Shown in pieces: positions 3,270 to 59,000 of a stretch of 64,000 nt of DNA. The position numbers and the translations under genes were made by a program. The notes beneath the pieces are model-generated. The model saw nothing but the letters and a program-made list of their open reading frames with translations, did no database searches and was not told the origin of the DNA. Position 1 is the stretch's first letter. Every line of letters begins with the position of its first letter. The DNA is from a virus (Duplodnaviria > Heunggongvirae > Uroviricota > Caudoviricetes): the IMG/VR virus record IMGVR_UViG_2778261574_000002, one strand, 5' to 3'.

Positions 3270-3354
3270 TTATGCTTCCTTTCGTAAAAACTCTTTTTGA
3301 CGCGAGGGTAACGAAAGTCACATGTCAAAAGGCCCGGAACGGGCAAGCAATCAA

Positions 3355-3807
3355 TCAGATACGTGCGGATGTGGCATTACCGTAATGACGGTGCTGACGG
3401 GCCACCTTATTGAAAAGTTGACGCGCCATTACCCAAGGCTGGTGCTCCCGGCGTTCCTTTTCGTCCTGCGTCATATAGAGTTCGTTCTGGAGTTTTTCAT
3501 CAAACCGGCGCGGAGCGCGGCTACGGCGAAAGAATTCAGGATTCAGAGAGTGGATCTGAAATCTACGTGGGCGTGTACTGTCATCAATCAAAACAGACGA
3601 ATACTTAGACACAGCGATAGCCTTTAAGCGCAGATAAACATCGCGCTTATCGACATCCAGATGCGGGTATTCCTTTTCAAGAATTGCTGCGAGTTCTTTC
3701 GCTGATAGAAGAGATTTAGTGCGGATCATGTAATCCGCAATCTCGTACGATGTTATTCGTGAGTGTTTTATTTCCATGAAGTGGCGTCCCTGCCAGTTAA
3801 GTAACAT
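3355..3807 (-). CDS. lpa: late promoter activator (Lpa-like), 150 aa
   Basis: Sits just upstream of pacA on the same strand; AGGTGA ribosome-binding site before the ATG at 3807; operator-like site ~70 bp upstream. Assignment is by position and size. Confidence 0.5.
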   Translation of the reverse strand: MLLNWQGRHFMEIKHSRITSYEIADYMIRTKSLLSAKELAAILEKEYPHLDVDKRDVYLRLKAIAVSKYSSVLIDDSTRPRRFQIHSLNPEFFRRSRAPRRFDEKLQNELYMTQDEKERREHQPWVMARQLFNKVARQHRHYGNATSARI

Positions 3808-6337: not shown

Positions 6338-6589
6338 TTATTTTTTTGGTGCATCCTCGTTCTGATACACCGGATCGCTCCCTTTTGGCAACTGGAGGCT
6401 TAACTGCCGGTAGTGCCGTAGCCGTTCCATGAAATAGGCGCGCAGGTTTTCCGGTTGCTCACGGGCCACCTGCTCTGCAATCACAGGTATATTCAGCCGT
6501 TCTTTGTAAGCAACGCCGCTGGCGGCAAGGTCTACGTTCACCTTGTCTCGCTCTTCCTGGCTTTTAGCTGCTATATTTCGATCTGACAC
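6338..6589 (-). CDS. hot: homolog of DNA polymerase III theta subunit (Hot-like)
   Basis: 83 aa; [39 protein letters not shown] resembles HolE theta. Confidence 0.8.
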
Positions 6590-6621
6590 AAGAAACCTCC
6601 AGGAGTTAGTGGATCAGGCAC

Positions 6622-6972
6622 ATGCACAATAACGTTCTCAATGTTAGCCGTTCAATTCAGACAATCAGAGACTGCACCAGTGTGGTGGCATCAATCCCAT
6701 TGCGAAACAGCATAGACGAACTGCAAATTCGTGTATTGAATCCGAATCAGGCTAATAAGCAATTGCGCTTTATTTTGACGCTGAAAAGTGAAACAGAGGG
6801 GATAAAGCACAGCGTAAAAGTGTTTTCTGAGGCCATTCTGCTTAATGGGAAGCTCCGGCATCTGGTAAGGCCAGAACGTCAATATCCTGACGTCCTGGCG
6901 CGTGAAAAAGACCTTCTTTCTGAAGTTCAGGATAGGGTGATCGATTTCGTCAAATGCTATCCCCTGCATTGA
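6622..6972 (+). CDS. hypothetical protein (strand assignment ambiguous)
   Basis: 116-aa ORF fully overlapping a 92-aa minus-strand ORF (6691-6969); + ORF has the more protein-like composition but a weak ribosome-binding site. Confidence 0.25.
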   Translation: MHNNVLNVSRSIQTIRDCTSVVASIPLRNSIDELQIRVLNPNQANKQLRFILTLKSETEGIKHSVKVFSEAILLNGKLRHLVRPERQYPDVLAREKDLLSEVQDRVIDFVKCYPLH

Positions 6973-7241: not shown

Positions 7242-7875
7242 GGTCCACCTCATGCTTTTCAGCCACCAGCGGCAATAAAGCCCTGGCCATCTTATGAACC
7301 AATAGTGCATCAATAATGCCAAGCGTATGCCCCGGCTTAATGTTTAATGCCGCCTCAAGGCGACACCTTTCCAGGCCACTTTTCTCGGCTTGTTTATGAT
7401 GATCTGGTGTAATAACGTCGCCCAAAACACGGCTTATTCTTTCTCGTAATTGCTGGGTGCCAGCACACTTGATCGCTGTATCGTGGAGACGGTTAACCAG
7501 TTCGCGATAAACATGCGGCTTAATTCGGATACGTTCACCGGTGACGCCCTTTCCTGGTGCTGGCACCGAACTATCCGGAATATCCGGATAGTTGCCAGCC
7601 TCGTAAGCTACCCGCAGCCAGTGCATGAATGTTTCAGTGGACACACAACCACAGTCCACATCGATTTTCCCGCGTTGCTGTTCCAGCCAATGCTCAAAAT
7701 TCAATCTACACGTATTACTTTCATGTTGCTCTTTTTGTCTCAAGGCCAGCATCTGCTGGGCTATTTCCAATACTTCATCTGCCGTATATCCAGCACCGTG
7801 ACCATACATTTCGATACGGGAAATAATCTCTGATATGCGCTCTTCAGTGATTCTGGTCATTTCTTTTTGCGCCAT
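7225..7875 (-). CDS. hypothetical protein, 216 aa
   Basis: Long ORF on the operon strand; no recognisable motif. Confidence 0.5.
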   Translation of the reverse strand: MAQKEMTRITEERISEIISRIEMYGHGAGYTADEVLEIAQQMLALRQKEQHESNTCRLNFEHWLEQQRGKIDVDCGCVSTETFMHWLRVAYEAGNYPDIPDSSVPAPGKGVTGERIRIKPHVYRELVNRLHDTAIKCAGTQQLRERISRVLGDVITPDHHKQAEKSGLERCRLEAALNIKPGHTLGIIDALLVHKMARALLPLVAEKHEVDHANES

Positions 7876-8231
7876 TTCTTTTCACATTCCTTAGTCCATT
7901 TTTCAATGTTCATTTTGGCAATATCAGTCATTCCATCACCTAAGAAATACTTTTTCCGGTACGTCTTGCACTTAAACCACACTACAACAGCCACCAACCA
8001 GAAAATAAAAGGCCATACAGCAATACCAACTCCAGCCGCGATAAAGCCCAATAGCCATAAATGAAGCTCTCCAACTTCTGTTTGCGGCAATATTCTTAAA
8101 GAATTAAACAGCAGACTGAAGGAATGGTCGTATGCATTGGCGGTATAAGACATGCAATCCATATAATTAAAGTCATAGCCTGCGGCTGCCGCCCATAATG
8201 GGCGGTCAAGAAAATGTTTTAGTGTCATCAT
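7857..8231 (-). CDS. hypothetical membrane protein
   Basis: 124 aa; hydrophobic stretch LWLLGFIAAGVGIAVWPFIFWLVAVVVWF; AT-rich coding sequence. Confidence 0.45.
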   Translation of the reverse strand: MMTLKHFLDRPLWAAAAGYDFNYMDCMSYTANAYDHSFSLLFNSLRILPQTEVGELHLWLLGFIAAGVGIAVWPFIFWLVAVVVWFKCKTYRKKYFLGDGMTDIAKMNIEKWTKECEKKWRKKK

Positions 8232-8237
8232 ATAAAT

Positions 8238-8627
8238 TTAAGGTTCAGACCAGTTATCTTCAATAGCAATGCTTAATCTTTGTAGCCATTCTGCTAATTT
8301 CAGCATTGCTTCTCTTTCGCTTAAACCACGAGGAAAATCATCAAGCGAAATTGTTGGCTTGAAGCCCCCGTAATTATCCATTTCAACAGTCAGATTTTGC
8401 TCCAGCACGGTATTCCTTACGCGGCTATTGTGCCGAAGCAAATATACTGAACGTGATTTATTGGTTTTATGGTCAAACTGATATTCGGTAAGTATCATCT
8501 GGCTTTTGCCATGACTATTACCTCTCCACATACCTACCTCACTTAATAAAACAACTCCATGCGTAGTTGATGATTTTTTCCTACGTAATATAAATCTGCA
8601 CTCCGGCAGTAAAACCAAAGCCAACAA
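8238..8627 (-). CDS. hypothetical protein
   Basis: 129-aa ORF, start uncertain; AT-rich. Confidence 0.4.
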   Translation of the reverse strand: MLALVLLPECRFILRRKKSSTTHGVVLLSEVGMWRGNSHGKSQMILTEYQFDHKTNKSRSVYLLRHNSRVRNTVLEQNLTVEMDNYGGFKPTISLDDFPRGLSEREAMLKLAEWLQRLSIAIEDNWSEP

Positions 8628-8709
8628 TTGCTGAAAAAATCAAAACATTTACTTTTGACATTATAAATTTTCTCTCGGTGTCGTAGGTGATAGCACCATA
8701 ATTGATAAT

Positions 8710-8961
8710 TTAGTGAGTTAGCAGTTCCATTTTTTGGATGATTTCCGCATGAGCATCATCGTTATCAACACTTAACTCGTTTAATGCCTCTCGCACCACA
8801 TCAACTTCTTCTGGTTGGAAGAAATCATCTCGGTAGTCACCAAATAGAACCGAAACAAGCCTGCCACCAGCAACATCAAGATTGGCGCTAACAGGTGGCT
8901 CTTTGCCATCCTCAAATTCGACTACAAAAGTTATTTTTCCCATCGTTACCACCAGCGACAA
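8710..8961 (-). CDS. small acidic hypothetical protein
   Basis: ~80 aa (MGKITFVVEFEDGKEPP..). Confidence 0.4.
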   Translation of the reverse strand: MSLVVTMGKITFVVEFEDGKEPPVSANLDVAGGRLVSVLFGDYRDDFFQPEEVDVVREALNELSVDNDDAHAEIIQKMELLTH

Positions 8962-9028
8962 ATTGAATACAAACCCAGTGCTGCCGCCATCACAATTCCT
9001 ACCGTTGCGAATGCTTCAGGCCAGCTCG

Positions 9029-9361
9029 TTATCTCACCTCCAGTCTCCATACCGCCTGACCAATCCGGCTGGCATGGGTATCTTTGGATACTGTTCCGTC
9101 TTTAGCCATCTCCATAAGAATTTTGCGCAAATCTGCCGAACGCCATTCTTCATCAGGAAATTCCTTCTCCATTGCCAACCGCAGATTCCAGGTTGCCATC
9201 CTGAATGGATATTCCCCGCCGAGAGCTTTATCTTGCAGGGCAGCCCGGGAACGCATCACCTGCAAAACCTTCTCTTTTACATTCATCATTTCGCCTCCTG
9301 CGGCGGTTCTGGTAGCGGCATCCAGTGTGACGGTTTCCACGACGCACCAGGAATTATCCAA
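9029..9361 (-). CDS. hypothetical protein
   Basis: 110-aa ORF; overlaps the 3' end of the upstream gene. Confidence 0.4.
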   Translation of the reverse strand: MDNSWCVVETVTLDAATRTAAGGEMMNVKEKVLQVMRSRAALQDKALGGEYPFRMATWNLRLAMEKEFPDEEWRSADLRKILMEMAKDGTVSKDTHASRIGQAVWRLEVR

Positions 9362-10401
9362 CCATCATTAGCGTCAGGATACCCCGGTATGTAAGTCGCC
9401 CATTTCATTCGCCAGTCACCTTTCCTATCAAACTCCCTGGCAACAAGAACGGCTGTTTTGCTATCCGGCATTCGCTCACTACAGCTTATCCAACCATCCG
9501 GAGTTACCGGAACTTGCGGAATGGCTGTCTGCTCTCGAACGTCATTAGGCGCTATAGGTTCTGCTGCCAACTGACTGGCATATTTGTTAATGGTAACGAT
9601 AAGCTCTTGCTCGGCCTCATCCAGACAATCACCGATACCTCGCCTGTCACCGTCAAAATCATCGAAATCGGCACGAATCTTGGCAACCTCCTGGATTGCG
9701 GACAACACTTCACCAGGAATAAGCCGAGAGTTGCCCGATAGTGCATTCTGCTCCAGTGATGCTTTTACAAACCACGCTGCCTGAACTATAACGCCATGAA
9801 TCCAGCGCAAATCAGCATCGCGATCTTTCTTTTTCATCTTTTCGCCACTTAAGGCCTTGCTTATGTGGCTGCGTACCAGGTCTTCATGTAATTCCTTCGC
9901 CTCCTCAATGGTGAAACCACCAGGCAGAAGAGCCGGAGTTACCGGAGAGCTGGTTGACGCTTCCGGGATTTCCCGAAAATTATTGGTTGACGAATTCTTG
10001 CTTTCCCGAAAGTTTCCGGACTGAAGCATGGCGGTGCGGCAGGCGTTCCATATTTCGGCAGCAATATCGCGCTCGCTATCGGTTAATTTGTACGTGGAAA
10101 CATAGCCAGAGAGCATTTCTACGTTTTCCGGAGTTGCTTCTTCCGGCACTACCGGCGCTGGCGGGGCGATGCGTCCAAGCAACTTATTTACCTCTTTCGC
10201 CATCGCGTCATATTTATCTAAATGGCGATTAGCTTCTAAGCAGACTCGGCGCATCTGATCTGAGTTAACTCGTTTAACTGGATCTGCTTCCAGCGATGCC
10301 AGCGCAATCCGTGCCAGTTCCATTTGTTCACCACGGGTAAGCCCGTTTTCAAGCGGATTTTTAATGAACAATTCAATACGTTCTTTGGTAATAGTGGTCA
10401 T
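9286..10401 (-). CDS. hypothetical protein with DUF551-like C-terminus
   Basis: 371 aa; C-terminal ..WKPSHWMPLPEPP; shares an internal module (APPxPVVPEE..WNACRxAMLQ) with the 11114-11509 product. Confidence 0.55.
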   Translation of the reverse strand: MTTITKERIELFIKNPLENGLTRGEQMELARIALASLEADPVKRVNSDQMRRVCLEANRHLDKYDAMAKEVNKLLGRIAPPAPVVPEEATPENVEMLSGYVSTYKLTDSERDIAAEIWNACRTAMLQSGNFRESKNSSTNNFREIPEASTSSPVTPALLPGGFTIEEAKELHEDLVRSHISKALSGEKMKKKDRDADLRWIHGVIVQAAWFVKASLEQNALSGNSRLIPGEVLSAIQEVAKIRADFDDFDGDRRGIGDCLDEAEQELIVTINKYASQLAAEPIAPNDVREQTAIPQVPVTPDGWISCSERMPDSKTAVLVAREFDRKGDWRMKWATYIPGYPDANDGWIIPGASWKPSHWMPLPEPPQEAK

Positions 10402-10411
10402 GTGTTACTCC

Positions 10412-10675
10412 TTAACCCGCAGTGCTTTCAACTGATGAGGGGAACAAAATCTTTTCATCAAACCCTGCATTCATATCATGAACAGCAACACACCAATCCA
10501 TCGACGAACGATTATCAAGAGCCTCCATGATTTCATCCATGCGGCGTAGGTCATACAGGTAAATGCTTTTATCGCCAATGGTGTAAAAGCCAATTTTTTT
10601 CGGTGATGGACAGCGATCAAGAACTTCCTGTAATTCGTTCAACCATGCCCGTTCTTTTTTTGTCAAAGTTGCCAT
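10412..10675 (-). CDS. hypothetical protein
   Basis: 87 aa from MATLTKKERAWLNELQ with AAGGAAAA ribosome-binding site; starts 1 nt after the upstream stop. Confidence 0.45.
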   Translation of the reverse strand: MATLTKKERAWLNELQEVLDRCPSPKKIGFYTIGDKSIYLYDLRRMDEIMEALDNRSSMDWCVAVHDMNAGFDEKILFPSSVESTAG

Positions 10676-10676
10676 A

Positions 10677-10895
10677 TCAGTTTTCCTTATACGGATTAAT
10701 TTTATTGTGCAGTGTGTTGAACGACGCCCATACCACGTCGTTATACAATTCAATAACTGGTTCAATTATTTTCCCGATTGCCCAGACAAAAATTAGCGGG
10801 GATATCGGTATCATCAACACGATAAACAGAATGAGAAACAAAAGTTCTGTCGCTCTACTTTTTCGCGGATATTCTTTTCTGAATAATGTAGGCAC
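10677..10895 (-). CDS. small membrane protein (GTG start)
   Basis: 72 aa; hydrophobic LLFLILFIVLMIPISPLIFVWAIG; preceded by AAAGGAGAGTGAT. Confidence 0.4.
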   Translation of the reverse strand: MPTLFRKEYPRKSRATELLFLILFIVLMIPISPLIFVWAIGKIIEPVIELYNDVVWASFNTLHNKINPYKEN

Positions 10896-10896
10896 A

Positions 10897-11112
10897 TCAC
10901 TCTCCTTTGTTGCTTCTCAAAATTTTATGCCCTGGCGCAAAAGCACGCGTTTTGTCGACGCTTATTCGCCACCCATCTTTACGTGCCTCTTTTGCACAGC
11001 CAGCCCATGACGTACCGATATACTCACCGAAGTCTGGCACTGGATATACACCTTCCGTACACTGGCGGCAGTCACAATAGAGATGCATGGTGTAACTTGC
11101 GGCAATAGCCAT
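10897..11112 (-). CDS. Cys-rich hypothetical protein
   Basis: 71 aa from MAIAASYTMHLYCDCRQCTEG; preceded by the recurring AAAGGAGAGTGAT junction. Confidence 0.45.
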   Translation of the reverse strand: MAIAASYTMHLYCDCRQCTEGVYPVPDFGEYIGTSWAGCAKEARKDGWRISVDKTRAFAPGHKILRSNKGE

Positions 11113-11113
11113 A

Positions 11114-11509
11114 TCACTCTCCTTTACCCTGAAGCATGGCGGCGCGGCAGGCATTCCAGCCTCTCACCTCTGCAATAGCGGCAACAGCATCGACCGCGTA
11201 CATTTTAAGAGGGTTAGGCATTGGTTTTTCTTCAGGTACTACTGGCACTGGAGGGGCGGCATAAACAGGAATAACGTCCGCTTGCTCTTTATTACTTTCA
11301 TCCGTTAAAGCCCAGAATAATTTCCCGGCCGGATGTTTGAAAATATAAGCAACTGGTTCTGCGCTATCAGCTTCGCGCCGCTTCTGTAGCTCTGCTGCCA
11401 TTGCTCTCACGACTTCAACTGGTGCCCTTGCAGCAAACTCTATGTTGGTGATCAGCTCATTAAGATATTGCTCGCTGGGATACTGTTTCTTATTGGTAAT
11501 AGTGATCAT
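11114..11509 (-). CDS. hypothetical protein
   Basis: 131 aa; ATG overlaps the upstream stop (ATGA); shares a module with the 9286-10401 product. Confidence 0.5.
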   Translation of the reverse strand: MITITNKKQYPSEQYLNELITNIEFAARAPVEVVRAMAAELQKRREADSAEPVAYIFKHPAGKLFWALTDESNKEQADVIPVYAAPPVPVVPEEKPMPNPLKMYAVDAVAAIAEVRGWNACRAAMLQGKGE

Positions 11510-12021
11510 GCCGCGTTTCCTTCTTTCTTATTAACAATTACACCGTCATATATTTCATTAAGGTGCCCTCTCAACTCCATGCGCCTTAATGCAGATAACA
11601 TGTAATCGCATTCAACCTGCTTATTCCCGGTAAATGGCTTATCGTCAGGATTACCCCAACAGCAATTACCCGTGGGCCATCCATGTACTTTCCGTACTCT
11701 TCCGTTAACAACGTGAAGTAATCCCCAGCCGGGAGGTAAATCCTCAATTGAAATAATTCCCGGCTCACTAATAAAGAATCGCCAGTCGCCCATGCCAAGT
11801 GAGGGATTTTTACGGAAACGCTTTTTTCTATCTGCCAACAAGTCAGCACGAGAACACTTCGCCTCTATCAGGCATGATGCTGAATTTCTGAATCCCATAG
11901 CATCTGGCTGTTCTCCGGTACTGGTTACAGCAACAAAGCGGTCATGAAAGCAAACCTTGAACCCGTTGCGCTTAAGGAACTTGTACGCAATCTGACAGAG
12001 TTCGTGGTGTGTTAACGCCAT
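11506..12021 (-). CDS. PD-(D/E)xK nuclease-like protein
   Basis: 171 aa from MALTHHELCQIAYKF; D..EAK motif (..DAMGF..CLIEAKCS..); preceded by AAAGGAGAGTGAT. Confidence 0.5.
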   Translation of the reverse strand: MALTHHELCQIAYKFLKRNGFKVCFHDRFVAVTSTGEQPDAMGFRNSASCLIEAKCSRADLLADRKKRFRKNPSLGMGDWRFFISEPGIISIEDLPPGWGLLHVVNGRVRKVHGWPTGNCCWGNPDDKPFTGNKQVECDYMLSALRRMELRGHLNEIYDGVIVNKKEGNAA

Positions 12022-12022
12022 A

Positions 12023-12583
12023 TCACTCTCCTTTGATGCGAATGCCAGCGGCGCGGGAATCATTCCATCGCTTTACTTCTTCACGAATTACGTCAATGCA
12101 TTCTTTCGAATCCATTAGGTAATCTTCATCAAAAAGACGTTCCTGTTCGTTTTCTATCGCAACAATGATTGCTTCAACTAACTTTTGTTCCTGAGAATCA
12201 CTTTCTAACTCTGCTATGCGCTTACTCCCATCCGAGATAACACCTTCGTAATATTCACGCTGTTCGTTGAGTTTTGATTTTGTCTCCTCAAGCTCAACGC
12301 GCAGCTTCCCTACCGTTAGCGCAATATCCTCGTTCTCCTGGTCGCGGCGTTTTATGTATTGCTGGTTTCTTTCCCGTTCATCCAGAAGCGCCAAGACGGT
12401 AGCCGGATTGGCTGCGGCGATGAATTCAGCATCACGAGATTCGTTTTCACTGAACACCATAGCTATTTGCTCATGGTTTATGCCGTCAGTGGAGTAAATC
12501 TCATCGTCGAATTCAACAGCCCACTTACCTTTCGTAGCCTTCTCTGCCGCCTCACGCAGTGCCTGATAGTCAATCTTGCTCAC
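12023..12583 (-). CDS. Ea22-like protein (paralog 1)
   Basis: GTG start after AAAGGAGG, overlapping the upstream TGA; N-terminal ..SKIDYQALREAAEKATKG and AEFIAAANPATVLALL motifs. Confidence 0.5.
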   Translation of the reverse strand: MSKIDYQALREAAEKATKGKWAVEFDDEIYSTDGINHEQIAMVFSENESRDAEFIAAANPATVLALLDERERNQQYIKRRDQENEDIALTVGKLRVELEETKSKLNEQREYYEGVISDGSKRIAELESDSQEQKLVEAIIVAIENEQERLFDEDYLMDSKECIDVIREEVKRWNDSRAAGIRIKGE

Positions 12584-13281
12584 TGGTTGCCTCCTTTGCG
12601 AATCTGTTCCGCCCATTCTTCAAGGGATTTCTCCGCATATTCACCGGACAGGCCATCAATCGGGTACGGTTCATTAGCCAACTCTTCTTTCGCTGACAGA
12701 ATCATGCGCGTAACGTCGAAAACTTCACGCAAAGACTTATTGATAAATCCGTGATTGAACGCAGCAGCAAGACGGCTGGCGGTATAGTTAATCCCCTCGT
12801 TGCGTGCTTCCGCACGAATTTCAGCCAGAAAAGCATCGGTAGCTGGAGTTTCGCTGTGGTGTAGGGCATCGTTGATAATCATTGCAGCAACTCCGGCCTG
12901 CCCTGCATCCGTGACCGACACATGATCAAGAGTTACAGCCATTGCGTGTTTCAGCCCAGCGTTCTCTGCCACCAGAGCCGCGAGCTTAGTCTCAAGCGGT
13001 GCTATTCGGCACATAGCATCAATATTTGTGTCCTCCAGGCGCTTAATTTCACCAAGTAGCTCCAGTGCAACCTTTGGGTTGAATGCGGCAATATAACGAG
13101 CGTTGTTCTCTGCGTTTTTCAGTCCATCAAAGCCGGTCCATTTGATAACGTCTTCACATCGTTTATCACCGGGCGTATGCACCGCATACGTACCAGTACC
13201 CGGCGAAATAAATGCGACCCATTCGCCCTGTGTTGCCTGTTTTGCTATCTCACGCAGTGCCCGGTAATTAATTTCGCTCAC
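12580..13281 (-). CDS. Ea22-like protein (paralog 2)
   Basis: GTG start after AAAGGAGG, overlapping the upstream TGA; ..SEINYRALREIAKQATQG and ARYIAAFNPKVALELL motifs. Confidence 0.5.
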   Translation of the reverse strand: MSEINYRALREIAKQATQGEWVAFISPGTGTYAVHTPGDKRCEDVIKWTGFDGLKNAENNARYIAAFNPKVALELLGEIKRLEDTNIDAMCRIAPLETKLAALVAENAGLKHAMAVTLDHVSVTDAGQAGVAAMIINDALHHSETPATDAFLAEIRAEARNEGINYTASRLAAAFNHGFINKSLREVFDVTRMILSAKEELANEPYPIDGLSGEYAEKSLEEWAEQIRKGGNQ

Positions 13282-13517
13282 TGGCTGCCTCCTTTGCGGA
13301 GTTGCGCTTCGATGCACGAAAAAAAAGACTCCCGAGTATGACTGTTAAGAGCTGGTGCGAACGCCGCGTTAAGAACGGCAGCATCACAGCCGTCATCAAT
13401 ATAGAGCGCAATTTTTTTCTCCAGGCGCGCTTTGGCTTGCTGCAACTGCATACCCCGGCACGCACGCGGGATATAATCAGCAATTTGAGCGATAGCTTTT
13501 TCGTTCTGTTTAAACAT
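13278..13517 (-). CDS. hypothetical protein
   Basis: 79 aa; C-terminus ..QLRKGGSQ encodes the next gene's ribosome-binding site. Confidence 0.45.
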   Translation of the reverse strand: MFKQNEKAIAQIADYIPRACRGMQLQQAKARLEKKIALYIDDGCDAAVLNAAFAPALNSHTRESFFSCIEAQLRKGGSQ

Positions 13518-13713
13518 GCTTCACCTCGATAGGCTTGATGGTGTCTAACAGCAGTCGACGGCGCGTATTTTCTGCAAAGTGGCGGCGTCCGGTATCTTTG
13601 TGGTAAAACTCATTTTTGCCGACGACCCACATCCGCTCTGTTTGGTGCAGTTTTTTTACCTGCGGCCCGTCTTTGGTGATCACGGTGCCGGTATGGGTTT
13701 TTACGATTGTCAT
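13510..13713 (-). CDS. hypothetical protein
   Basis: 67-aa ORF on the operon strand. Confidence 0.4.
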   Translation of the reverse strand: MTIVKTHTGTVITKDGPQVKKLHQTERMWVVGKNEFYHKDTGRRHFAENTRRRLLLDTIKPIEVKHV

Positions 13714-13796
13714 GCCACTACCTCTTCGAACAGATGAACGAGACAGGCCGATGTTCGTCCACCTGAAAAACTGACGATTTGATGCATACTCACGGT

Positions 13797-14525
13797 TTAT
13801 TCCTGAATGCGCTTAAACTCGATTACCCACACCCAGGGATTAGCGTTCCAGCTTTCTTCACCATAGATGGATTCCCACAGGCGCTGGAACGCAACCTTGG
13901 CCATTGCGAAATCCCCCTTGGGAGTAAGGAATGTTCCCGGGTGATCAGGAAGCAAACTTCCAGCAGGCGGAACGCCCTCAGCCCTTGCATCGCATTCGCT
14001 GATATCGTTCAACCGTTCAACGCGCACGTTGGTAATTTCCAACAGAATGCGTGATGCCCATCGCGGCATGTGAATTGATGGACGCCACCCACCATCAAAC
14101 TTTTCATTCACAGTGTGAGGTTTCCAGTCGGCATCATCGGGTATCGACCATAAGCCGTAATCACCAGGTTTTTGCTCGCAACTGGCCCGATAAATCCTTG
14201 CTGCGTTCTTCTCATCGCCACGACAAAGGTTGTCGTTCCAGTCCACACTGCAACCATCCTCATTGCCTAATATCGCCCATGTTTCACGAACCCAAATTCG
14301 ATCGCCGACGATACCAAATGGGCAATTGAAAACACTGCTTACACCATCAGCCCCGTACCACTGAAAACCTGCACCAATTTTTCTAACCATCACTGGTGCT
14401 TCTGGACCAACTTCCGCAGGCTGATTTTTCATTATCCGCCGCGTCTGCGTTTTCCTTCCTTCGAGGATGGCCCGGACCATCTCATCGTTAAAAATCATGC
14501 CGCGCTCTTTCACTTCGCCTTTCAT
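13797..14525 (-). CDS. ASCH-domain-like protein
   Basis: 242 aa; N-terminal MIFNDEMVRAILEGRKTQTRR resembles the ASCH fold signature. Confidence 0.5.
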   Translation of the reverse strand: MKGEVKERGMIFNDEMVRAILEGRKTQTRRIMKNQPAEVGPEAPVMVRKIGAGFQWYGADGVSSVFNCPFGIVGDRIWVRETWAILGNEDGCSVDWNDNLCRGDEKNAARIYRASCEQKPGDYGLWSIPDDADWKPHTVNEKFDGGWRPSIHMPRWASRILLEITNVRVERLNDISECDARAEGVPPAGSLLPDHPGTFLTPKGDFAMAKVAFQRLWESIYGEESWNANPWVWVIEFKRIQE

Positions 14526-41429: not shown

Positions 41430-41452
41430 CAACAAGTGACTTTCAATAAAAT
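41430..41452 (+). promoter_or_regulatory. late-promoter-like motif
   Basis: CAACAAGTGACTTTCAATAAAAT, preceded by inverted repeat GAAAGTCA..TGACTTTC; upstream of the capsid gene. Confidence 0.5.
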
Positions 41453-41482
41453 CTCTTCCGAAAAGGGATTCACACAAGTGCC

Positions 41483-43210
41483 TTGTGTTTAAGGAAGAGT
41501 AAATTGAGTAACTTACGCGAATACCAGAATCGTATTGCAGATATCGCAAAACGCTCTAAAGCAGTGCTTGGCTGGGCAAGCACTGCGCAGTTCGGTACTG
41601 ATAACCAATTCATTAAAGATGATGCCGCGCGTGCCGCATCTATCCTTGAAGCTGCACGTAAAGACCCGGTTTTTGCGGGTATCTCTGATAATGCCACCGC
41701 TCAAATCGCTACAGCGTGGGCAAGTGCACTGGCTGACTACGCCGCAGCACATAAATCTATGCCGCGTCCGGAAATTCTGGCCTCCTGCCACCAGACGCTG
41801 GAAAACTGCCTGATTGAGTCCACCCGCAATAGCATGGATGCCACTAATAAAGCGATGCTGGAATCCGTCGCAGCAGAGATGATGAGCGTTTCTGACGGTG
41901 TTATGCGTCTGCCTTTATTCCTCGCGATGATCCTGCCTGTTCAGTTGGGGGCAGCTACCGCTGATGCGTGTACCTTCATTCCGGTTACGCGTGACCAGTC
42001 CGACATCTATGAAGTCTTTAACGTGGCAGGTTCCTCTTTTGGTTCTTATGCTGCTGGTGATGTTCTGGACATGCAATCCGTCGGTGTGTACAGCCAGTTA
42101 CGCCGCCGCTATGTGCTGGTGGCAAGCTCCGATGGCACCAGCAAAACCGCAACCTTCAAGATGGAAGACTTCGAAGGCCAGAATGTACCAATCCGAAAAG
42201 GTCGCACTAATATCTACGTTAACCGTATTAAGTCTGTTGTTGATAACGGTTCCGGCAGCCTACTTCACTCGTTTACTAATGCTGCTGGTGAGCAAATCAC
42301 TGTTACCTGCTCTCTGAACTACAACATTGGTCAGATTGCCCTGTCGTTCTCCAAAGCGCCGGATAAAGGCACTGAGATCGCAATTGAGACGGAAATCAAT
42401 ATTGAAGCCGCTCCTGAGCTGATCCCGCTGATCAACCACGAAATGAAGAAATACACCCTGTTCCCAAGCCAGTTCGTTATCGCGGCTGAGCACACGGTAC
42501 AGGCGGCGTATGAAGCACAGCGTGAATTTGGTCTGGACCTGGGTTCCCTACAGTTCCGCACCCTGAAAGAATACCTGTCCCATGAACAGGATATGTTGCG
42601 TCTCCGCATCATGATCTGGCGTACTCTTGCGACCGACACCTTTGACATCGCTCTGCCGGTTAACCAGTCCTTTGATGTATGGGCAACCATCATTCGTGGC
42701 AAATTCCAGACTGTATATCGCGACATTATTGAGCGCGTTAAATCTTCTGGTGCGATGGGGATGTTTGCTGGTGCTGATGCAGCATCTTTCTTCAAACAGT
42801 TGCCGAAGGATTTCTTCCAGCCAGCCGAAGACTATATCCAGACTCCGTATGTTCACTACATCGGTACCCTGTTCGGTAACGTGAAAGTGTACGAAGTACC
42901 TGCTGGTATTTGTAAGAACTTAACGACAGAGAACATTCAGTTCAGCTCGATGGATGTGCTGTGCTACGTCCGTGATGAAAATCCGGGTAAAGCAGGCTTC
43001 GTGACTGGTGATGCTGTCCCGGCCATCCCGTTCCAGCATCCGACCACTCCGGCGCTGGTCAACCGTACCACGCTGTGGGGTTCGGCTATCAACGATATGC
43101 ACCCACGCAACGGCGCTGATTACTTCACTCGTGTAACGCTGACAATGGCCAAAAAAGGCGGGCTTAACTTCATAAGCGGCGACACGATTGATGCCGGTGA
43201 CTCTGAGTAA
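41483..43210 (+). CDS. major capsid protein candidate
   Basis: 575-aa ORF (true start may be a few codons in); first gene after the late-promoter motif; assignment by size and position. Confidence 0.5.
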   Translation: MCLRKSKLSNLREYQNRIADIAKRSKAVLGWASTAQFGTDNQFIKDDAARAASILEAARKDPVFAGISDNATAQIATAWASALADYAAAHKSMPRPEILASCHQTLENCLIESTRNSMDATNKAMLESVAAEMMSVSDGVMRLPLFLAMILPVQLGAATADACTFIPVTRDQSDIYEVFNVAGSSFGSYAAGDVLDMQSVGVYSQLRRRYVLVASSDGTSKTATFKMEDFEGQNVPIRKGRTNIYVNRIKSVVDNGSGSLLHSFTNAAGEQITVTCSLNYNIGQIALSFSKAPDKGTEIAIETEINIEAAPELIPLINHEMKKYTLFPSQFVIAAEHTVQAAYEAQREFGLDLGSLQFRTLKEYLSHEQDMLRLRIMIWRTLATDTFDIALPVNQSFDVWATIIRGKFQTVYRDIIERVKSSGAMGMFAGADAASFFKQLPKDFFQPAEDYIQTPYVHYIGTLFGNVKVYEVPAGICKNLTTENIQFSSMDVLCYVRDENPGKAGFVTGDAVPAIPFQHPTTPALVNRTTLWGSAINDMHPRNGADYFTRVTLTMAKKGGLNFISGDTIDAGDSE

Positions 43211-45720: not shown

Positions 45721-46302
45721 ATGGCACCTATACCTTATGGGGTTTACAGCCAGGCTGACGGTGTATCGCCATATCTGAAAGTTACTTTAACGAACTCTCA
45801 GTACCAGGTTACCGGATATATCAGCCAGGGAGCGGCAATGAACATGGCCCAGAATTGGGAAGCGCCGTTTACCGGTATGTCCATGGGATCTGTTGCTGGT
45901 GCCTTCAGTGGTTTTGCGCAGGTTGGTACTGAAACAACGTCGGTTGCCCGTTGGAACAGCTTAATGGTTTGGGAAGGGGGAACACCGCCGACTTTCACGC
46001 TGCCAGTAACTTTCATCGCTTTGTTTGACCCATTCACGGAGGTTTCAGGAGCTATCGCCGCATTGTCAGCGATGATTAGCCCGGAACTTAAAGATGCCAG
46101 TATTGGTGGTCGAATCCCGGAGCGTGTGACGCTAAACATTGGTCGCCGGATCAACATCATTGATGTCGCTATCCAGGACATAAGTTTCGATCTCGATGCG
46201 CCCAGGGACAGCAATGGGCATTTCCTGAAAAACACCGTCAACCTCCAGTTGACCGGTTCTTCGATATATAACAGCTCCGATATTGTTCGGGCGTTCCAGT
46301 AA
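45721..46302 (+). CDS. hypothetical structural protein
   Basis: 193-aa ORF in the late operon. Confidence 0.5.
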   Translation: MAPIPYGVYSQADGVSPYLKVTLTNSQYQVTGYISQGAAMNMAQNWEAPFTGMSMGSVAGAFSGFAQVGTETTSVARWNSLMVWEGGTPPTFTLPVTFIALFDPFTEVSGAIAALSAMISPELKDASIGGRIPERVTLNIGRRINIIDVAIQDISFDLDAPRDSNGHFLKNTVNLQLTGSSIYNSSDIVRAFQ

Positions 46303-46842: not shown

Positions 46843-46867
46843 AAAGCTCCTTCGGGAGCTTTTTTTA
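46843..46867 (+). terminator. rho-independent terminator
   Basis: AAAGCTCC-TTCG-GGAGCT followed by TTTTTTT. Confidence 0.7.
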
Positions 46868-46958
46868 TAACTATTTTATATAAACATGCATCGATAACAT
46901 TGTCTGGAGTTTTATGTTAGATTATTAATGTTCTAATAAACTACAATTATTGAGGTAG

Positions 46959-47591
46959 ATGTTTGTGCCTGTACTGTTAAAGGGGGACTCTAAAATGGCT
47001 GTGATTCCAATGTCGTACTCCCCGGGTACTGTTGCTCGTCGATTTTCGATCCTGGACGGAGTTACCATCCAGGGTGTGCTTTACCAGGTTATATGGGATT
47101 CCAAAACCCCATTTGCAGCTGTAATAGAGGCTGCGCCTTCTATTATCGATGGTGATATGCGCCATAAGGTTGTCGCTACTCTTGAACTTCAACGTCGCCC
47201 GCAGCTTGAAGGCGTACTGGTAAGGAAGTTCTGGGAGGATAGCGATGTTGCCCAGATTGAAGGTATCGTGGTTGATGGAACCGTCCGGGATGTCGGTTTA
47301 GCTACTTTTGTTTACGAAACCGTAGCCTCAAAAGCTGGTGTTGTTTTGCTCAGTGATAATGAGCAATACGAAGGTGGAAAAGCTCTTTGGCAACACATCG
47401 CCCGTCGCTCTTCCGAGCTAAAAGTGTTTATCCTTGACACCGATGCCGCTCAGTATTACCCGTTTGACGGCGAACGTGTTTGCTATGACGGGGTAAGTAT
47501 TCCTGAATCCGAGATATGGAGTGAACACCCAGATCGAAGTAAGCATGGGGTTGTTCTGGTCGCTGAATCCATAATTGGAAATGCGGCATAG
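46959..47591 (+). CDS. hypothetical protein
   Basis: 210-aa ORF, start uncertain. Confidence 0.45.
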   Translation: MFVPVLLKGDSKMAVIPMSYSPGTVARRFSILDGVTIQGVLYQVIWDSKTPFAAVIEAAPSIIDGDMRHKVVATLELQRRPQLEGVLVRKFWEDSDVAQIEGIVVDGTVRDVGLATFVYETVASKAGVVLLSDNEQYEGGKALWQHIARRSSELKVFILDTDAAQYYPFDGERVCYDGVSIPESEIWSEHPDRSKHGVVLVAESIIGNAA

Positions 47592-47773
47592 CAGTAAAAA
47601 ATTCCTTGCTCCTTAAAAGGGGAGAGGGTTAATCTACGTATGCTAAGCATAGAGATGGCCTCAGATTAATGTTAAGCGTCTTGCAGGACGCGTAATGTTA
47701 TCTGGGGCTTTCTTCTATCTGCTTTTCGGGTAATGCCTGAAGCAGATAGCCTCAAGCACCCGTAACGATTGTA

Positions 47774-48100
47774 TCAATGTCTGGCTTTTTTTCTATAGAA
47801 ATCACCAGGAAGGGTGAATATCCACATCAGAAGAAATGTTGCAGCAAACATGATCCCTAATGGCCAGACCGCGCCAAAGAAAATCCATACTAAGATCTCC
47901 TCTGTTCGTTCTTTGCGGTCGATATCGACAAGCATTCTTCGGCTGATCATGTATACACAGAAGCCAATACAAACATATCCTGCAAAAGCGATCGCTAACT
48001 GTAAAAAATCAGATTGCATCTCCGACCTCAAACTGAAAACGCCAGGTGACTCCAGATTAGAGCAATCTATCACCCTCTGAATCCTGCCGGTATACCCCAT
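47774..48100 (-). CDS. small membrane protein
   Basis: Two hydrophobic helices (..FAGYVCIGFCVYMI.. and ..FGAVWPLGIMFAATFLLMWIF..); start uncertain. Confidence 0.35.
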   Translation of the reverse strand: MGYTGRIQRVIDCSNLESPGVFSLRSEMQSDFLQLAIAFAGYVCIGFCVYMISRRMLVDIDRKERTEEILVWIFFGAVWPLGIMFAATFLLMWIFTLPGDFYRKKARH

Positions 48101-51592: not shown

Positions 51593-52084
51593 ATGAGAAA
51601 ACTATTACTACCGTTATTATTTATGGCTGGGACTGTTAATGCAGCATCAAGCGTAAAGGAGATTTGTACCGATTATACGAAATACCTTGGGCACGTTTAC
51701 GGATTTGCTGTCAGTGAAGACGAATCCATGCGCAAGAAGTTACTGTCAGATATGAAGCGCCTTAAACTTTCTGAAGCGATGGTGCAGCAGGAACTGTATA
51801 AAGTCTCAACCAACGCAAATGCTAAATACCAATATTCTCGCCTATTAAACCCCGATGCAAATGAGATCAATCGAAGCACTTTCGATTATATGGTAAAGGC
51901 ATGCGAAACCGCTCCTGATTTTGCTATCCCTAGCTGGGGTGTGCTGGTGGCGAGCAATGCCGTTAATAAAGAAGATGTTGGAAGAAATGGCATTGACTCA
52001 ATCAGAAATGCCCCAGGAATGCGCCATCAAAACGTGCAGGGTACGCTTGAAGAACGAGCCAGGGGGCCGGGTGTAGCTCCATAA
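51593..52084 (+). CDS. exported protein with Sit-mimicking C-terminal tail
   Basis: 163 aa from MRKLLLPLLFMAGTVNA (signal peptide) after GGTGAGG; C-terminus ..GIDSIRNAPGMRHQNVQGTLEERARGPG. Confidence 0.55.
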   Translation: MRKLLLPLLFMAGTVNAASSVKEICTDYTKYLGHVYGFAVSEDESMRKKLLSDMKRLKLSEAMVQQELYKVSTNANAKYQYSRLLNPDANEINRSTFDYMVKACETAPDFAIPSWGVLVASNAVNKEDVGRNGIDSIRNAPGMRHQNVQGTLEERARGPGVAP

Positions 52085-52172
52085 TTTAATGAATAATATT
52101 AAATTCTCTGGGCATAGTGGATCTAACAATATGGACTATGCCTATAATATCTAAAACAAAAAGGATAAAAAT

Positions 52173-52679
52173 ATGAAATTATATAAGTCATTGTATAGCT
52201 TTTTATTAATGTCCTCTTTTCTGCCATTATCAGCAATGGCAGGTTCTACCGTTTGGACGGTAGGAGGTGAGCAAGGGTGGAGAGAAATCTCTGCAACCAA
52301 TGACGATGGTTATACAATTAACTTTTCTTGTGATGCTGGAGCAAGGGAAGGTTCAGAAGATCATATCGCTGGAAGAAATTTGTATGTAAGCGGAGGAAAA
52401 GAGAATGCCGATTTTTCTACACGCGACACAATATCACGTAAAGCAGATGTAATTACTTTAATTGTTGGCCCGGATAGTTTTAATATTGGCACGCAAAACA
52501 CTGCTCCTAATCGTAGGGAATGGTATTCATTTTGGAAGGCAGTGTCATCTACAAATGAAAAAAACATAGATGTATATATCGGTTCGAGTCGAATCACATC
52601 ATTCACTCTGGATGGTATTTCCAGTATTTATACAGAAGCTAAAAATGACGGGTGTTTAAAACAAGATGACGGTGAATAA
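52173..52679 (+). CDS. exported hypothetical protein
   Basis: 168 aa; signal peptide MKLYKSLYSFLLMSSFLPLSAMA; AT-rich. Confidence 0.55.
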   Translation: MKLYKSLYSFLLMSSFLPLSAMAGSTVWTVGGEQGWREISATNDDGYTINFSCDAGAREGSEDHIAGRNLYVSGGKENADFSTRDTISRKADVITLIVGPDSFNIGTQNTAPNRREWYSFWKAVSSTNEKNIDVYIGSSRITSFTLDGISSIYTEAKNDGCLKQDDGE

Positions 52680-53739
52680 AGTGAAGGATATTAAACACAT
52701 TTCGCTTAACTCTAATAATAAAGCTGAAGGCACTGCCTTTTATGATTATTTAAATGAAATTAAAGGAGTGAGGCATAAAAAGATAAGTGGTTTATTAAAT
52801 TCAGAATATATTTACAAGAGTTTAGTTAAACAGTTTGGAACAGTTAAAAAACAAGAATTAATTAATGATTGTTTTCGAAAAGAACTTGAGTCTTTACCAA
52901 AAGTTACGAGAATTGCACACCAGTTTCGTGAACAAATGGTATTTTTACAGAAACAGTATCAGGCGGCTTTTCCCAGTGATGCAAATGAGCATATTCAAAT
53001 AATTAAAAATCAAGCTGAAATGGCTATGCCGTTACGAAAACACTCAGAAGCCATTAATAAGATAGCTGGCTTAAATAATATGGAGGAGGTATTTAAAGAA
53101 TTACACTCTAATATAAATTACAAAATTAAGATAAGCAAAGATATTAAAGAAATAATAAAGCAGTATAATAAAACAAGAAGTGTATTATTAGAGCAAGTAG
53201 TAGAGCTTGGGCTTGTTACTATCGCGCAGGCTTATGCTAATGATTCTATAAAATCAGCGCATACCGAAAGTGAGCATCAAAACAAAGGATTTAATAAATC
53301 TAGTTCGACGTTTTTTGATTCATTTAAGGCGCTTCCTTCTCCTATTCAGATCTTCCTTCTGTGGATTTTTTATCAAGTGGTGCTTGGCGCTATAACTGAT
53401 TATGCAAAAGAAAAGACATTATCGCAAATTTACAAGATGGAATCATATCTTCTATCTCTAAATGAGGATAAGCCAATATCTAAGCAAAAGCTAACACAAG
53501 AAAATAAAGATATTCAGTGGGAGGATCTTAATAATTTTAGAGCTATAACAGGTGATAACGTAAGGTTGCATGTCGGCCCTTCTTTAAATAGTGAAGTGAT
53601 TGAATGCATTGGCAAAAACACAATTGTTGCTATTTTAGATAAGAAAGATCGTCAATGGCTTTACGTGCAGGTTAAATCAGGGGATGAGTTTATTACTGGT
53701 TGGATTACACGAACATACACAAAGCCTCTTAAGGCTTGA
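52666..53739 (+). CDS. membrane protein with C-terminal SH3b-like domain
   Basis: 357-aa ORF (start uncertain, ATG 52666 or GTG ~52681); hydrophobic IQIFLLWIFYQVVLGAI; C-terminal ..RLHVGPSLNSEVIECIGKNTIVAILDKKDRQWLYVQV... Confidence 0.45.
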   Translation: MTVNKVKDIKHISLNSNNKAEGTAFYDYLNEIKGVRHKKISGLLNSEYIYKSLVKQFGTVKKQELINDCFRKELESLPKVTRIAHQFREQMVFLQKQYQAAFPSDANEHIQIIKNQAEMAMPLRKHSEAINKIAGLNNMEEVFKELHSNINYKIKISKDIKEIIKQYNKTRSVLLEQVVELGLVTIAQAYANDSIKSAHTESEHQNKGFNKSSSTFFDSFKALPSPIQIFLLWIFYQVVLGAITDYAKEKTLSQIYKMESYLLSLNEDKPISKQKLTQENKDIQWEDLNNFRAITGDNVRLHVGPSLNSEVIECIGKNTIVAILDKKDRQWLYVQVKSGDEFITGWITRTYTKPLKA

Positions 53740-53839
53740 ATTTTATCTCCGCATCTTCGGATTGGGTGTTGATGACGATGTGCTACTTGAAGCACTTGAG
53801 TTGTTTTAACGTAGTATCTGAAATGTGTAGACTGACCGG

Positions 53840-53862
53840 TAACAAATGACAACTCGTAGAAT
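53840..53862 (+). promoter_or_regulatory. late-promoter-like motif
   Basis: TAACAAATGACAACTCGTAGAAT upstream of the tail operon. Confidence 0.5.
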
Positions 53863-53869
53863 CGGTTAA

Positions 53870-54460
<591 letters not shown>

Positions 54461-56059: not shown

Positions 56060-59000
56060 ATGGAAAGAAAAAACGCCAACATTGACGATGTTATAAGGAC
56101 AGTTGAAACCGCCAGCGCAAAAGAGCTGGAAGAGCTTGCAGGTATCCGGGAAGCTGTTGAAGATTTGAAAGGGGGACGCGTTGCAACTGTTGATCCTGTC
56201 TCTCACAGTGTGTCGGCATTAAATCGCACAATCGAAAATTCCAGGCCAGACTTTGTGGCCAATGCGCCATCAGTGGCCCCTATTGTTGAGGCAATGAAAC
56301 GGCTTAATTTAGGGGACGTTTCTCGTGTAGTTCAGGAGGATGTTGCTCTACAGGAACCGCAGGCCAAATCAACTACGCGAAAGGGTAAAAAACGACGCAA
56401 GAAGGCTATAACAGAAGATGTAAAGGCGCAACGGACCGAAGCAGCCGAACACGCTCGCGAAATGTTCGGTCAAAAAGGCGGTGCGCAAAAAAGCCAAAAC
56501 CAACGCGATGCGCGTGGTCGTTTTATTGGAAAGCCAGGGAGTAAGGCCGCAGCGGAAGATGCCCGTGCTGAACGTGCTGAAAAGGCCAGGCGCAAAGAGG
56601 ATGATGAGCGTCTAAATGCTGAATCAGGTTTATTAAAAAAACTGTCAAAAGTAGCTGAAGGCATAGGTAACCCTTCAGAGACTCGCGCCGTCGATGCGTT
56701 AGGTTATGCCGTTGCTGGTCCATTGTGGGCCGCAGGGAAGGAGCTTGGCGGGATATCAAAAGAAGTTGGTGGATCGCTTAATGGTGCCAGAAAGTCTATT
56801 GCCGATGTGATTCGTGGCAATGACGATAACAGCCGTAGAAAAGGTTTTTTTAGGCGTAAATCGCAAAATAGTGCCGATGTCGTTCAGGTTAACACCCAAA
56901 AACGGACGGTTCAGGAACTTCAGGAGCAGACCAGCGAAATTAAAGAGGGCAATGACAAGATTCTCAGCGCCCTTGATCAGATAGCCAAAAACACCGGGAA
57001 AAAGAAGGGCGGCTTGCTGTCCAAACTATTTAGCCTGTTAGGGAAGGGGGCCGGTGGCGTCGCGTCGTTGTTAATGGGGCGTGGCATGCTGAAAAAAGCT
57101 GGAGCACTCGCTTTTGGCGCTCTGGGGGCAAAGAAACTTGTAGGAATGCTACGCGGTGGTGGCAAGAAGACTCTCGCCCATGAAGGCGGAGATTTGGCTG
57201 CCCGGGCAGCAGGTAAACTTGGATTAAAGGCAGTTGGTAAAGGGGCGTTACGCGCAATTCCCCTAGTCGGCACAGTGGCTGGAGGTATTTATGATGCGGT
57301 AACCGGTTGGAATGATACAGAAGCGCAACGTCGAGCGTTTGGGCTTAAATCAGGACAAGATCCATCATTCCAGCAAAAAGCCGCTTATACGTTAGCCAAT
57401 GTTCTTGATTTGGGGGGACTGGTATCTGGTATTAGCAGTGCTATTGGTGATGTTCTCAAATCACTTGGATTTGAGGATATCGGCAATATGTTGCAATCAT
57501 TTTCGACGGAAAGTATTGCCCAGGCCATTGATAGCGGGGTTACCAACTTAGAAACATATATTTCTAACCTTGGCGACACCATTTCTACCAAGTTCGATGA
57601 TTACACAGCAAAGATTGGTGATGCTGTTTCAGCATGGTTTAGCGATACATCTAATAAGTTGCTTGAAAAGCTGGATGCCATAAAAGACTTCTTTACTGTC
57701 GATAACCTGAAACAGGTTTTCAGTGATGCAATTGATAGTGTAATTGATTTCATTAAGAACCCAGGGAAACACATTAAAGAGGCGGCTGGTAATATTTGGG
57801 ATGGGGTTAAAAATTTACCAGGTAAAGCATTAGATGCAGCGGTTGATGCCGTTAAAAATACCCCTGCGGCAATGATTGTATCAAAAATACCCAATCCGAT
57901 CGGCGAGGCTAATGCGAAAGAAATCACTCCAGAGTTAAAAGTTCCGGTTAATAGCCACCAGGGGACATCTGATTCTAAAACTGAATACGATGCCAAACAG
58001 ACTAATATTGCTGCCCGCGTGATAAATGCGGCCCTGGATATGGTGAAAGATAGCAATAAAACAGTTAAAGAAACTGCTAATCAGATTATCAATGCAAATA
58101 CCGTAGATACAGGAAATAAAGCAGCACAAACAATTGATGCTGCCTTGGGCCAGTCTGCTACAGGCAAGGAGGAAGCATTAAGTGCATATGAGATAGATAA
58201 ACGTCGATTTAACAATGGCAAGGATGTTTCTTTGCCAAAATTAAATGCTGCCGGATACCAATGGATTTCTGACAATGCCGATTATTTTGATGAGCTTGAA
58301 CGTAAGTATGGGCTTGAAAAAGGGATTCTGTCAGCAGTTGCATCCGCAGAGTCTAGTGCAGGCCAGAGAACTGGAAATCCAGTAGACAAAAACGGGAACA
58401 AACTTTCATCTGCCCTTGGGGCTTTTCAGATCACTAAAGGTACAAGGGAGGATCTTGGACTCAGCGATGCTGATGCCATGGATACACGAAAAGCAGCTGA
58501 TGGTGCCGCCAGATACCTAAGTATGCTGATGAACCGTTATAACGGTGATCAGGGTCGTGCAATAGCTGCCTATCATGCTGGTATGGGGCATGTTGATAAG
58601 GGGAGAGTAGTCGCAGGTACCGGCGAATATGTTACTCGTGTCAGAGGGTATCAGCAGATGCTCAATAATGGTGCCGTTTATGGCTCTAAGGTAGATCATA
58701 GCGCACCAGCAATTTACGAAAAGATACCTGATAACGCTGTTATCGATCAGTCTACTGGCCTGGCGTTTACCCCTGGTGATAGCCCGTTTGAGAAAGGCGG
58801 TCTGGTAGACAAAATTGGCAATGCTGTTGGCGTTAACGATCTGGTCAACAAATTCATGAATGGCCGGGGTATGCGTCGGGAAGTCGTTCAGGGAACGCTC
58901 GAAGAACGTGCACGAGGGAAGGGGACCGCAACAGCAGCTGGCAATGTGTATGTTGATACTCCTATGCCAGTTGAAGAGGCGCGTCCGGTGGCCAGCAACT

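Follow-up and report, generated by a model that had tools for sequence, protein, structure and literature searches.

Late promoters of the P1 type, very probably dependent on Lpa, upstream of structural operons in a P1-like phage genome

The window and its repeated promoter motif

The window is a stretch of 64,000 nucleotides of the virus record IMGVR_UViG_2778261574_000002 and, as judged from alignment, is a P1-like (Punavirus) genome with about 97-99% identity to phage P1 where the two can be aligned. It is oriented as the reverse complement of the P1 reference AF234172.1 and ends inside c1 at one side and inside the tail-fibre gene S at the other. A megablast of the whole window against P1 gives collinear blocks at 85-98% identity, broken by replaced or inserted segments; between 40000 and 44000 the identity is 99.3% to P1 (AF234172.1, reverse orientation) and 99.5% to phage RCS47. 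By these alignments the window is not P1 itself, but a relative of mosaic make-up. A segment of 6.2 kb at 7606-13831 has no P1 counterpart, is inserted at about P1 position 85182 and holds ORFs on the minus strand, with two Ead/Ea22-like proteins and a DUF551 protein among their products; other non-P1 segments lie at 28363-29891, 36481-37355, 46865-48056 and 58118-58727. At 51732-53840, upstream of the late promoter LPsit, the P1 sim/superimmunity region is swapped for unrelated DNA, whose products include a 357-aa protein (52666-53739) with an SH3_3 domain at its C-terminus.

Three operons of structural genes are preceded by copies of a common motif, and an activator gene lies near one end of the window:

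20507-20529, plus strand: LP26, motif stretch cAACAAATGACtagcggTAGAAT; box AAATGACTA at 20511-20519, spacer GCGG, −10 hexamer TAGAAT at 20524-20529; annotated in P1 as 'late promoter LP26'; late promoter of the baseplate/tail operon 26-25-7-24-6-5, whose gene 26 starts at 20559 (plus strand).
41430-41452, plus strand: LP23, motif stretch cAACAAGTGACtttcaaTAAAAT; box AAGTGACTT at 41434-41442, a perfect 9-bp palindrome, spacer TCAA, −10 hexamer TAAAAT at 41447-41452; late promoter of the capsid, sheath and baseplate operon 23 (major capsid)-22 (sheath)-21-pmgG-bplB, whose gene 23 starts at 41504 (plus strand).
53840-53862, plus strand: LPsit, motif stretch tAACAAATGACaactcgTAGAAT; box AAATGACAA at 53844-53852 (AAATGACTA in P1), spacer CTCG, −10 hexamer TAGAAT at 53857-53862; annotated in P1 as 'late promoter LPsit'; late promoter of the tail operon pmgC-tub-pmgB-sit-pmgA-bplA-16, whose pmgC starts at 53894 (plus strand).
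3355-3807, minus strand: lpa (gene 10); Pfam PF25716 BPP1_LPA ('Late promoter-activating protein'), E=3e-57; PHROG 1704 'Lpa-like transcriptional activator'.

A previous, sequence-only reading of this DNA had proposed that AACAARTGAC, followed 7 nt later by TARAAT, occurs at the three places named, each just upstream of the first gene of a plus-strand structural operon. All three copies are indeed there as exact plus-strand matches (20508-20529, 41431-41452 and 53841-53862; the 23-nt spans given earlier begin one base 5′ of AAC), and the first gene follows at a distance of 30-52 nt at every site. The gap had to be corrected, as the pattern with 7 nt has no match and the true gap is 6 nt, with TARAAT starting at the seventh base after GAC. 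The motif is commoner than chance would give: AACAARTGAC-N6-TARAAT is matched three times in the window and not once in 100 dinucleotide-preserving shuffles, and with up to two mismatches it is matched five times against 0.19 expected. A looser consensus, ACAWRTKAC-N6-TANNNT, yields six sites on both strands against 0.06 expected, adding 62084-62104 (plus strand), 3305-3325 (minus strand) and 22214-22234 (plus strand) to the three earlier ones. The search of both strands that had been suggested thus upheld the listed sites and found the list incomplete, since it brought out the further late promoters LPs and LPpac. The flanks of the three original copies are unrelated to each other.

Identity and conservation of the late promoters

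In AF234172.1 the late promoters LP26, LP23 and LPsit are annotated at exactly the bases of the three sites, in agreement with the earlier proposal of activator-dependent late promoters of the P1 family, and the '-22 region' features of that record coincide with their boxes. LP26 and LP23 are identical to their P1 counterparts over 23 nt and occupy the same genomic positions, while LPsit differs from that of P1 at one box position and in the 5′ flank; for LP23 the record gives only the label 'predicted late promoter'. At the three sites the architecture consists of a 9-bp '-22 box' (consensus AAGT[G/T]ACTT, with its centre near −22, usually after an AC), a 4-nt spacer and a −10 hexamer that carries T1, A2 and T6, with no −35 element. 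The decamer AACAARTGAC of the first reading overlaps the annotated box; the functional element as annotated is the 9-bp box AA[A/G]TGAC[T/A][T/A] together with the −10 hexamer. Alignment of the 11 late promoters extracted from AF234172.1 (LPmat, LPpro, LPlyz, LPdar, LPs, LPsit, LP23, LP26, LPpmgL, LPhot and LPpac) gives (a/g)AC-AAGT(G/T)ACTT-N4-TAnnAT, from which the decamer can be recognized as an AC-containing 5′ flank joined to the first seven bases of the box. The AAC of the first reading extends the box on its 5′ side, and within it only AC is conserved.

The 11 late promoters of P1 have been described as sharing a conserved 9-bp inverted repeat, the Lpa-binding site (PMC10695390). In the window the boxes match the palindrome at 9/9 positions in LP23, 7/9 in LP26 and 6/9 in LPsit (7/9 in P1), so that the description as an inverted repeat fits LP26 and LPsit only loosely. 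A promoter named 'PL23' has been described as Lpa-dependent and used on a plasmid as a reporter of the lytic pathway (PMC8546580).

A position weight matrix (PWM) scan of the window gives six sites at or above 20 bits, the next best reaching 16.2 bits. The six are LP26, LP23 (27.5 bits), LPsit, LPs (27.0 bits, the second in the window), LPpac and an unannotated site at 22212-22234. When the matrix was trained without LP23, LP26 and LPsit, all three were still among the top six in the 128 kb scanned. In a leave-one-out analysis, 9/10 promoters of standard spacing scored at least 18.4 bits and LPpmgL scored −2.7 bits. Further annotated members of the family in the window are:

62082-62104, plus strand: LPs (Ps); box AAGTTACTT at 62086-62094, −10 hexamer TACAAT at 62099-62104; upstream of R, first gene of the tail-fibre operon R-S-U, and according to AF234172.1 the same as the Ps identified earlier.
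3305-3327, minus strand: LPpac; box ATGTGACTT at 3315-3323, −10 hexamer TACCCT at 3305-3310 (minus strand); annotated, with the same sequence in P1; late promoter of the packaging genes pacA-pacB.
20501-20519, minus strand: LPpmgL; a divergent late promoter by the P1 annotation, sharing the box of LP26 but reading it on the other strand.

The −10 hexamer of LPpmgL reads ATTATT in the window and AATATT in P1, a difference of one base, and close relatives vary more in this stretch than anywhere else in the region; by its sequence LPpmgL is a doubtful member of the family and looks weak. The LPhot box (AAGTTACTT in P1) is absent from the DNA upstream of the hot homologue of the window (6584-6720, minus strand); this homologue (6338-6589, minus strand) has only about 85% identity to P1 hot, and its upstream DNA is different.

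Conservation was followed in Cronobacter phage JK004, an independent genome left out of the building of the matrix, and in IMG/VR contigs. In these relatives the box and the −10 hexamer are conserved while spacers and flanks have diverged. The JK004 orthologues of the promoter-adjacent genes are 59-86% identical to the P1 proteins, and the phage encodes an Lpa with 63-67% identity to that of the window. Scanned with the matrix, JK004 has 10 matches that reach 14 bits, where 0.45 would be expected; with the threshold at 11 bits, matches are found ahead of the orthologues of mat, 26, R, 23, prt, pacA, lyz, pmgC and lydA, and 9/11 P1 late promoters are thereby covered. LPs and LPpac are conserved there, upstream of the R orthologue and of pacA, respectively.

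At LP23 the block GTCAACAAGTGACTTTCAATAA[A/T]AT is intact in JK004 and in an IMG/VR contig (L090) whose gp23 has about 80% identity, and upstream of it the DNA from parS to the promoter is unalignable with either. At LP26, CAACAAATGACTA is invariant in 29 close variants, in which the 4-bp spacer varies (GCGG, GCGA, GCAG, TCGG) and the −10 hexamer changes at position 3 only (TAGAAT, TATAAT, TAAAAT); the JK004 counterpart, CAACAAGTGACTC-N4-TACAAT, lies within an otherwise unalignable intergenic region. At LPsit, the DNA ahead of the promoter in 26 variants belongs to at least five unrelated cassettes, corresponding to the variable sim region, and conservation starts exactly at ACAAATGAC; homology between the window and P1 likewise resumes at 53841, at the promoter. 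Among these variants the base before AC is A, C or G and the last two positions of the box are TA, AA or AT, so that the constrained part of LPsit is AC+AAATGAC and not the full palindrome. No promoter motif was found upstream of distant pmgC homologues (contigs L500 and L501, 58% identity), in which pmgC directly follows another gene.

Taken together, the three motifs are very probably (about 0.95) the Lpa-activated late promoters of a P1-like phage known as LP26, LP23 and LPsit, and nothing found contradicts this reading. Three other explanations were weighed. According to the first, which we consider very unlikely, the sites are ordinary constitutive σ70 promoters and the common upstream decamer is incidental. 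Each site does have a good −10 hexamer (TAGAAT or TAAAAT), and the P1 record predicts overlapping σ70 promoters near gene 23; yet a permissive consensus scan finds no σ70 −35/−10 pair at LP26, LP23 or LPsit, as would be expected where an activator site replaces the −35 element. Moreover, the conserved box sits at the place of what would be a σ70 spacer and is maintained by selection in diverged phages whose true spacer positions are free to vary. The literature, too, assigns these promoters to Lpa (PMC10695390, PMC8546580 and PMC1891329).

That some regulator other than Lpa binds the box, for instance a repressor or a protein of recombination or partition, with promoter activity being secondary, appears extremely unlikely. 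The neighbourhood of the sites lends this idea some appeal, as parS is about 60 bp away from LP23 and the C1 operator O26 about 25 bp away from LP26, and LPsit overlaps an 11-bp inverted repeat. Nonetheless, the C1 operators and ParB boxes of the annotation are distinct from the box and have another consensus, the box is always 4 bp from the −10 hexamer and always directed into late genes, and the same genomes encode a dedicated activator family. Finally, chance recurrence or a functionless remnant of duplicated DNA, conceivable for a motif of three copies only whose −10-like hexamers arise easily in A+T-rich intergenic DNA, is effectively refuted by the empty shuffles, the unrelated flanks, the retention of the motif at orthologous positions amid unalignable intergenic DNA of JK004, and its place at the exact 5′ edge of conservation in the pmgC region beside at least five unrelated cassettes.

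The assignment of the three motifs to Lpa-dependent late promoters is a correct rediscovery of promoters already annotated in P1, and hence already known. Nothing new is learned on P1 itself, since the promoters with their box, their activator and their need for SspA belong to the textbook knowledge of P1. For annotation, its value is that the starts of the late operons are fixed in a P1-like element and that the Lpa late-gene switch is confirmed as intact. Some by-products may interest P1 specialists, namely a probable late promoter upstream of ppfA, the doubt on LPpmgL, the asymmetric AC conserved 5′ of the box and a hairpin at LPsit/pmgC.

Additional candidate sites and the LPsit/pmgC hairpin

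Two sites outside the P1 annotation resemble late promoters:

35847-35869, plus strand: candidate late promoter upstream of ppfA, TAAC-AAAGGACTT-CATT-GATAAT; box at 35851-35859, −10 hexamer at 35864-35869.
22212-22234, plus strand: late-promoter-like site inside gene 7 (22167-22895; codons 16-24), CAAC-AAGTGACTG-GTGA-TAACCT.

The ppfA candidate scores 16.2 bits, and the same position in JK004, with the sequence TGAC-AAATGACCT-GGCG-GAAAAT, scores 15.9 bits. Seven diverged lineages, JK004 among them, have in common the pattern A[A/T]N[G/T]GAC[T/C]T-N4-GA[T/A/G]AAT, but differ in the spacer and in the stretch from the −10 hexamer to the Shine-Dalgarno sequence; one diverged lineage has the perfect palindrome AAGTGACTT at this place. 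Upstream of ppfA, AF234172.1 has predicted σ70 promoters only and no annotated late promoter. This pattern of conservation suggests that the site at 35847-35869 is probably an additional, twelfth late promoter of the P1 regulon.

The site inside gene 7 scores 20.0 bits and has the same sequence in P1. In diverged lineages ACA[A/T][A/G]TGAC and TAnnnT are kept despite residue changes (Q/H, V/M, N/T/I), although coding constraint confounds the comparison; late transcription of genes 24-6-5 might start internally at this site, or the site might be an artefact of that constraint. Perfect AAGT[G/T]ACTT palindromes also occur on the plus strand at 45779 (inside pmgG), 48897 (antisense to the repL start) and 59002 (inside sit), all of which P1 has as well. 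They were rejected as promoters, having no −10 hexamer at the standard 4-bp distance, and could be chance occurrences or promoter-less candidate Lpa sites.

Downstream of the LPsit box, at 53853-53887 (plus strand), lies the perfect 11-bp inverted repeat CTCGTAGAATC-N13-GATTCTACGAG, whose left arm holds the −10 hexamer of LPsit and whose right arm overlaps the pmgC Shine-Dalgarno sequence GAGG. Across the 26 variants the arms are invariant and the loop is variable, and the JK004 lineage shows a paired compensatory change in the arms, TAGAAT having become TAAAAT and GATTCTA having become GATTTTA. The predicted fold of a read-through RNA over the hairpin has −24.2 kcal/mol (z = −5.7), whereas in an RNA begun about 7 nt past the LPsit −10 hexamer the stem cannot form and the predicted fold has −3.2 kcal/mol. 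Should the hairpin act at the RNA level, a free ribosome-binding site would be found only in mRNA that begins at LPsit and so lacks the left arm, and that of mRNA reading through from upstream would be masked. As a hypothesis built on these folding predictions, we propose that the ribosome-binding site of pmgC may be unmasked in a promoter-dependent way.

We advance only tentatively, at somewhat less than even odds, that the late regulon of P1 goes beyond the 11 annotated promoters, with the ppfA site and possibly that of gene 7, and, separately, that the conserved 11-bp hairpin of LPsit/pmgC, with its compensatory change in the JK004 lineage, masks the ribosome-binding site of read-through mRNA. 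Another short hairpin, ACACAAG-TGC-CTTGTGT, is present in the gene 23 leader at 41472-41488 (plus strand), between LP23 and the start codon; a GAAAAG...GTGCC motif around it is partly kept in JK004.

The activator Lpa and comparison with other systems

The ORF at 3355-3807, taken as the activator gene by the sequence-only reading, was rightly identified: it is lpa, and its product is identical to P1 Lpa at 149/150 positions. Searches for distant homologues, run with an alignment of Lpa proteins, brought up nothing but P1-like loci that are nearly identical. AF234172.1 annotates lpa with the C1-controlled promoter Plpa/Olpa, and control of lpa by C1 has been described (PMC8546580). PMC1891329, citing Hansen et al. 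(2003), presents Lpa as a sequence-specific DNA-binding activator thought to work via the host protein SspA, which is associated with RNA polymerase; SspA itself, according to the same source, does not bind late-promoter DNA.

Following this literature, a course of events can be proposed for the window. Inactivation of the C1 repressor would de-repress lpa and Lpa would be made. Lpa would then bind the −22 box, replacing a −35 contact, and, together with host SspA, would enable σ70 RNA polymerase to initiate transcription about 7 nt past the −10 hexamer. LP26, LP23 and LPsit would in this way turn on the genes for the baseplate and tail (26 onward), the head and sheath (23, 22 onward) and the tail tube and tape measure (pmgC to 16), respectively. 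The evidence within the window consists of the identity with annotated promoters, the absence of a −35 element, the presence of lpa, the non-random occurrence of the motif and purifying selection on the box and the −10 hexamer; that Lpa binds these particular promoters, that they need SspA and where transcription starts we infer from the literature.

The closest comparison is with P1, whose late promoters have the same elements and the same activator gene, lpa, as the window. The differences lie in the cassette upstream of LPsit, which is another one in P1, the −10 hexamer of LPpmgL, which is one base off, and the LPhot box, which is missing from the window.

The late promoters of Mu (protein C) and of P2/P4 (Ogr/Delta) are, as in P1, activator-dependent, with a recognisable −10 element, a poor or absent −35 element and an upstream dyad-symmetric activator site, and through them, too, morphogenesis and lysis operons are driven by the host σ70 polymerase. 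The activators Mu C and P2/P4 Ogr/Delta are unrelated to Lpa. The Mu C site overlaps the −35 region and that of P2 Ogr is a dyad near −55; unlike the sites of Mu and P2/P4, the P1 box is unusually close to the −10 element, at 4 bp. We know of no SspA co-activator in the Mu and P2/P4 late promoters.

A partner of the SspA family is found in the activation of virulence by MglA-SspA-PigR in Francisella, for which PMC1891329 describes a DNA-bound activator thought to work via an SspA-family protein associated with RNA polymerase, and cites Lpa-SspA of P1 as the precedent. The Francisella system differs from that of P1 in that it serves a bacterial virulence regulon, uses a different DNA-binding protein and a different DNA site, and has a heterodimeric SspA partner.
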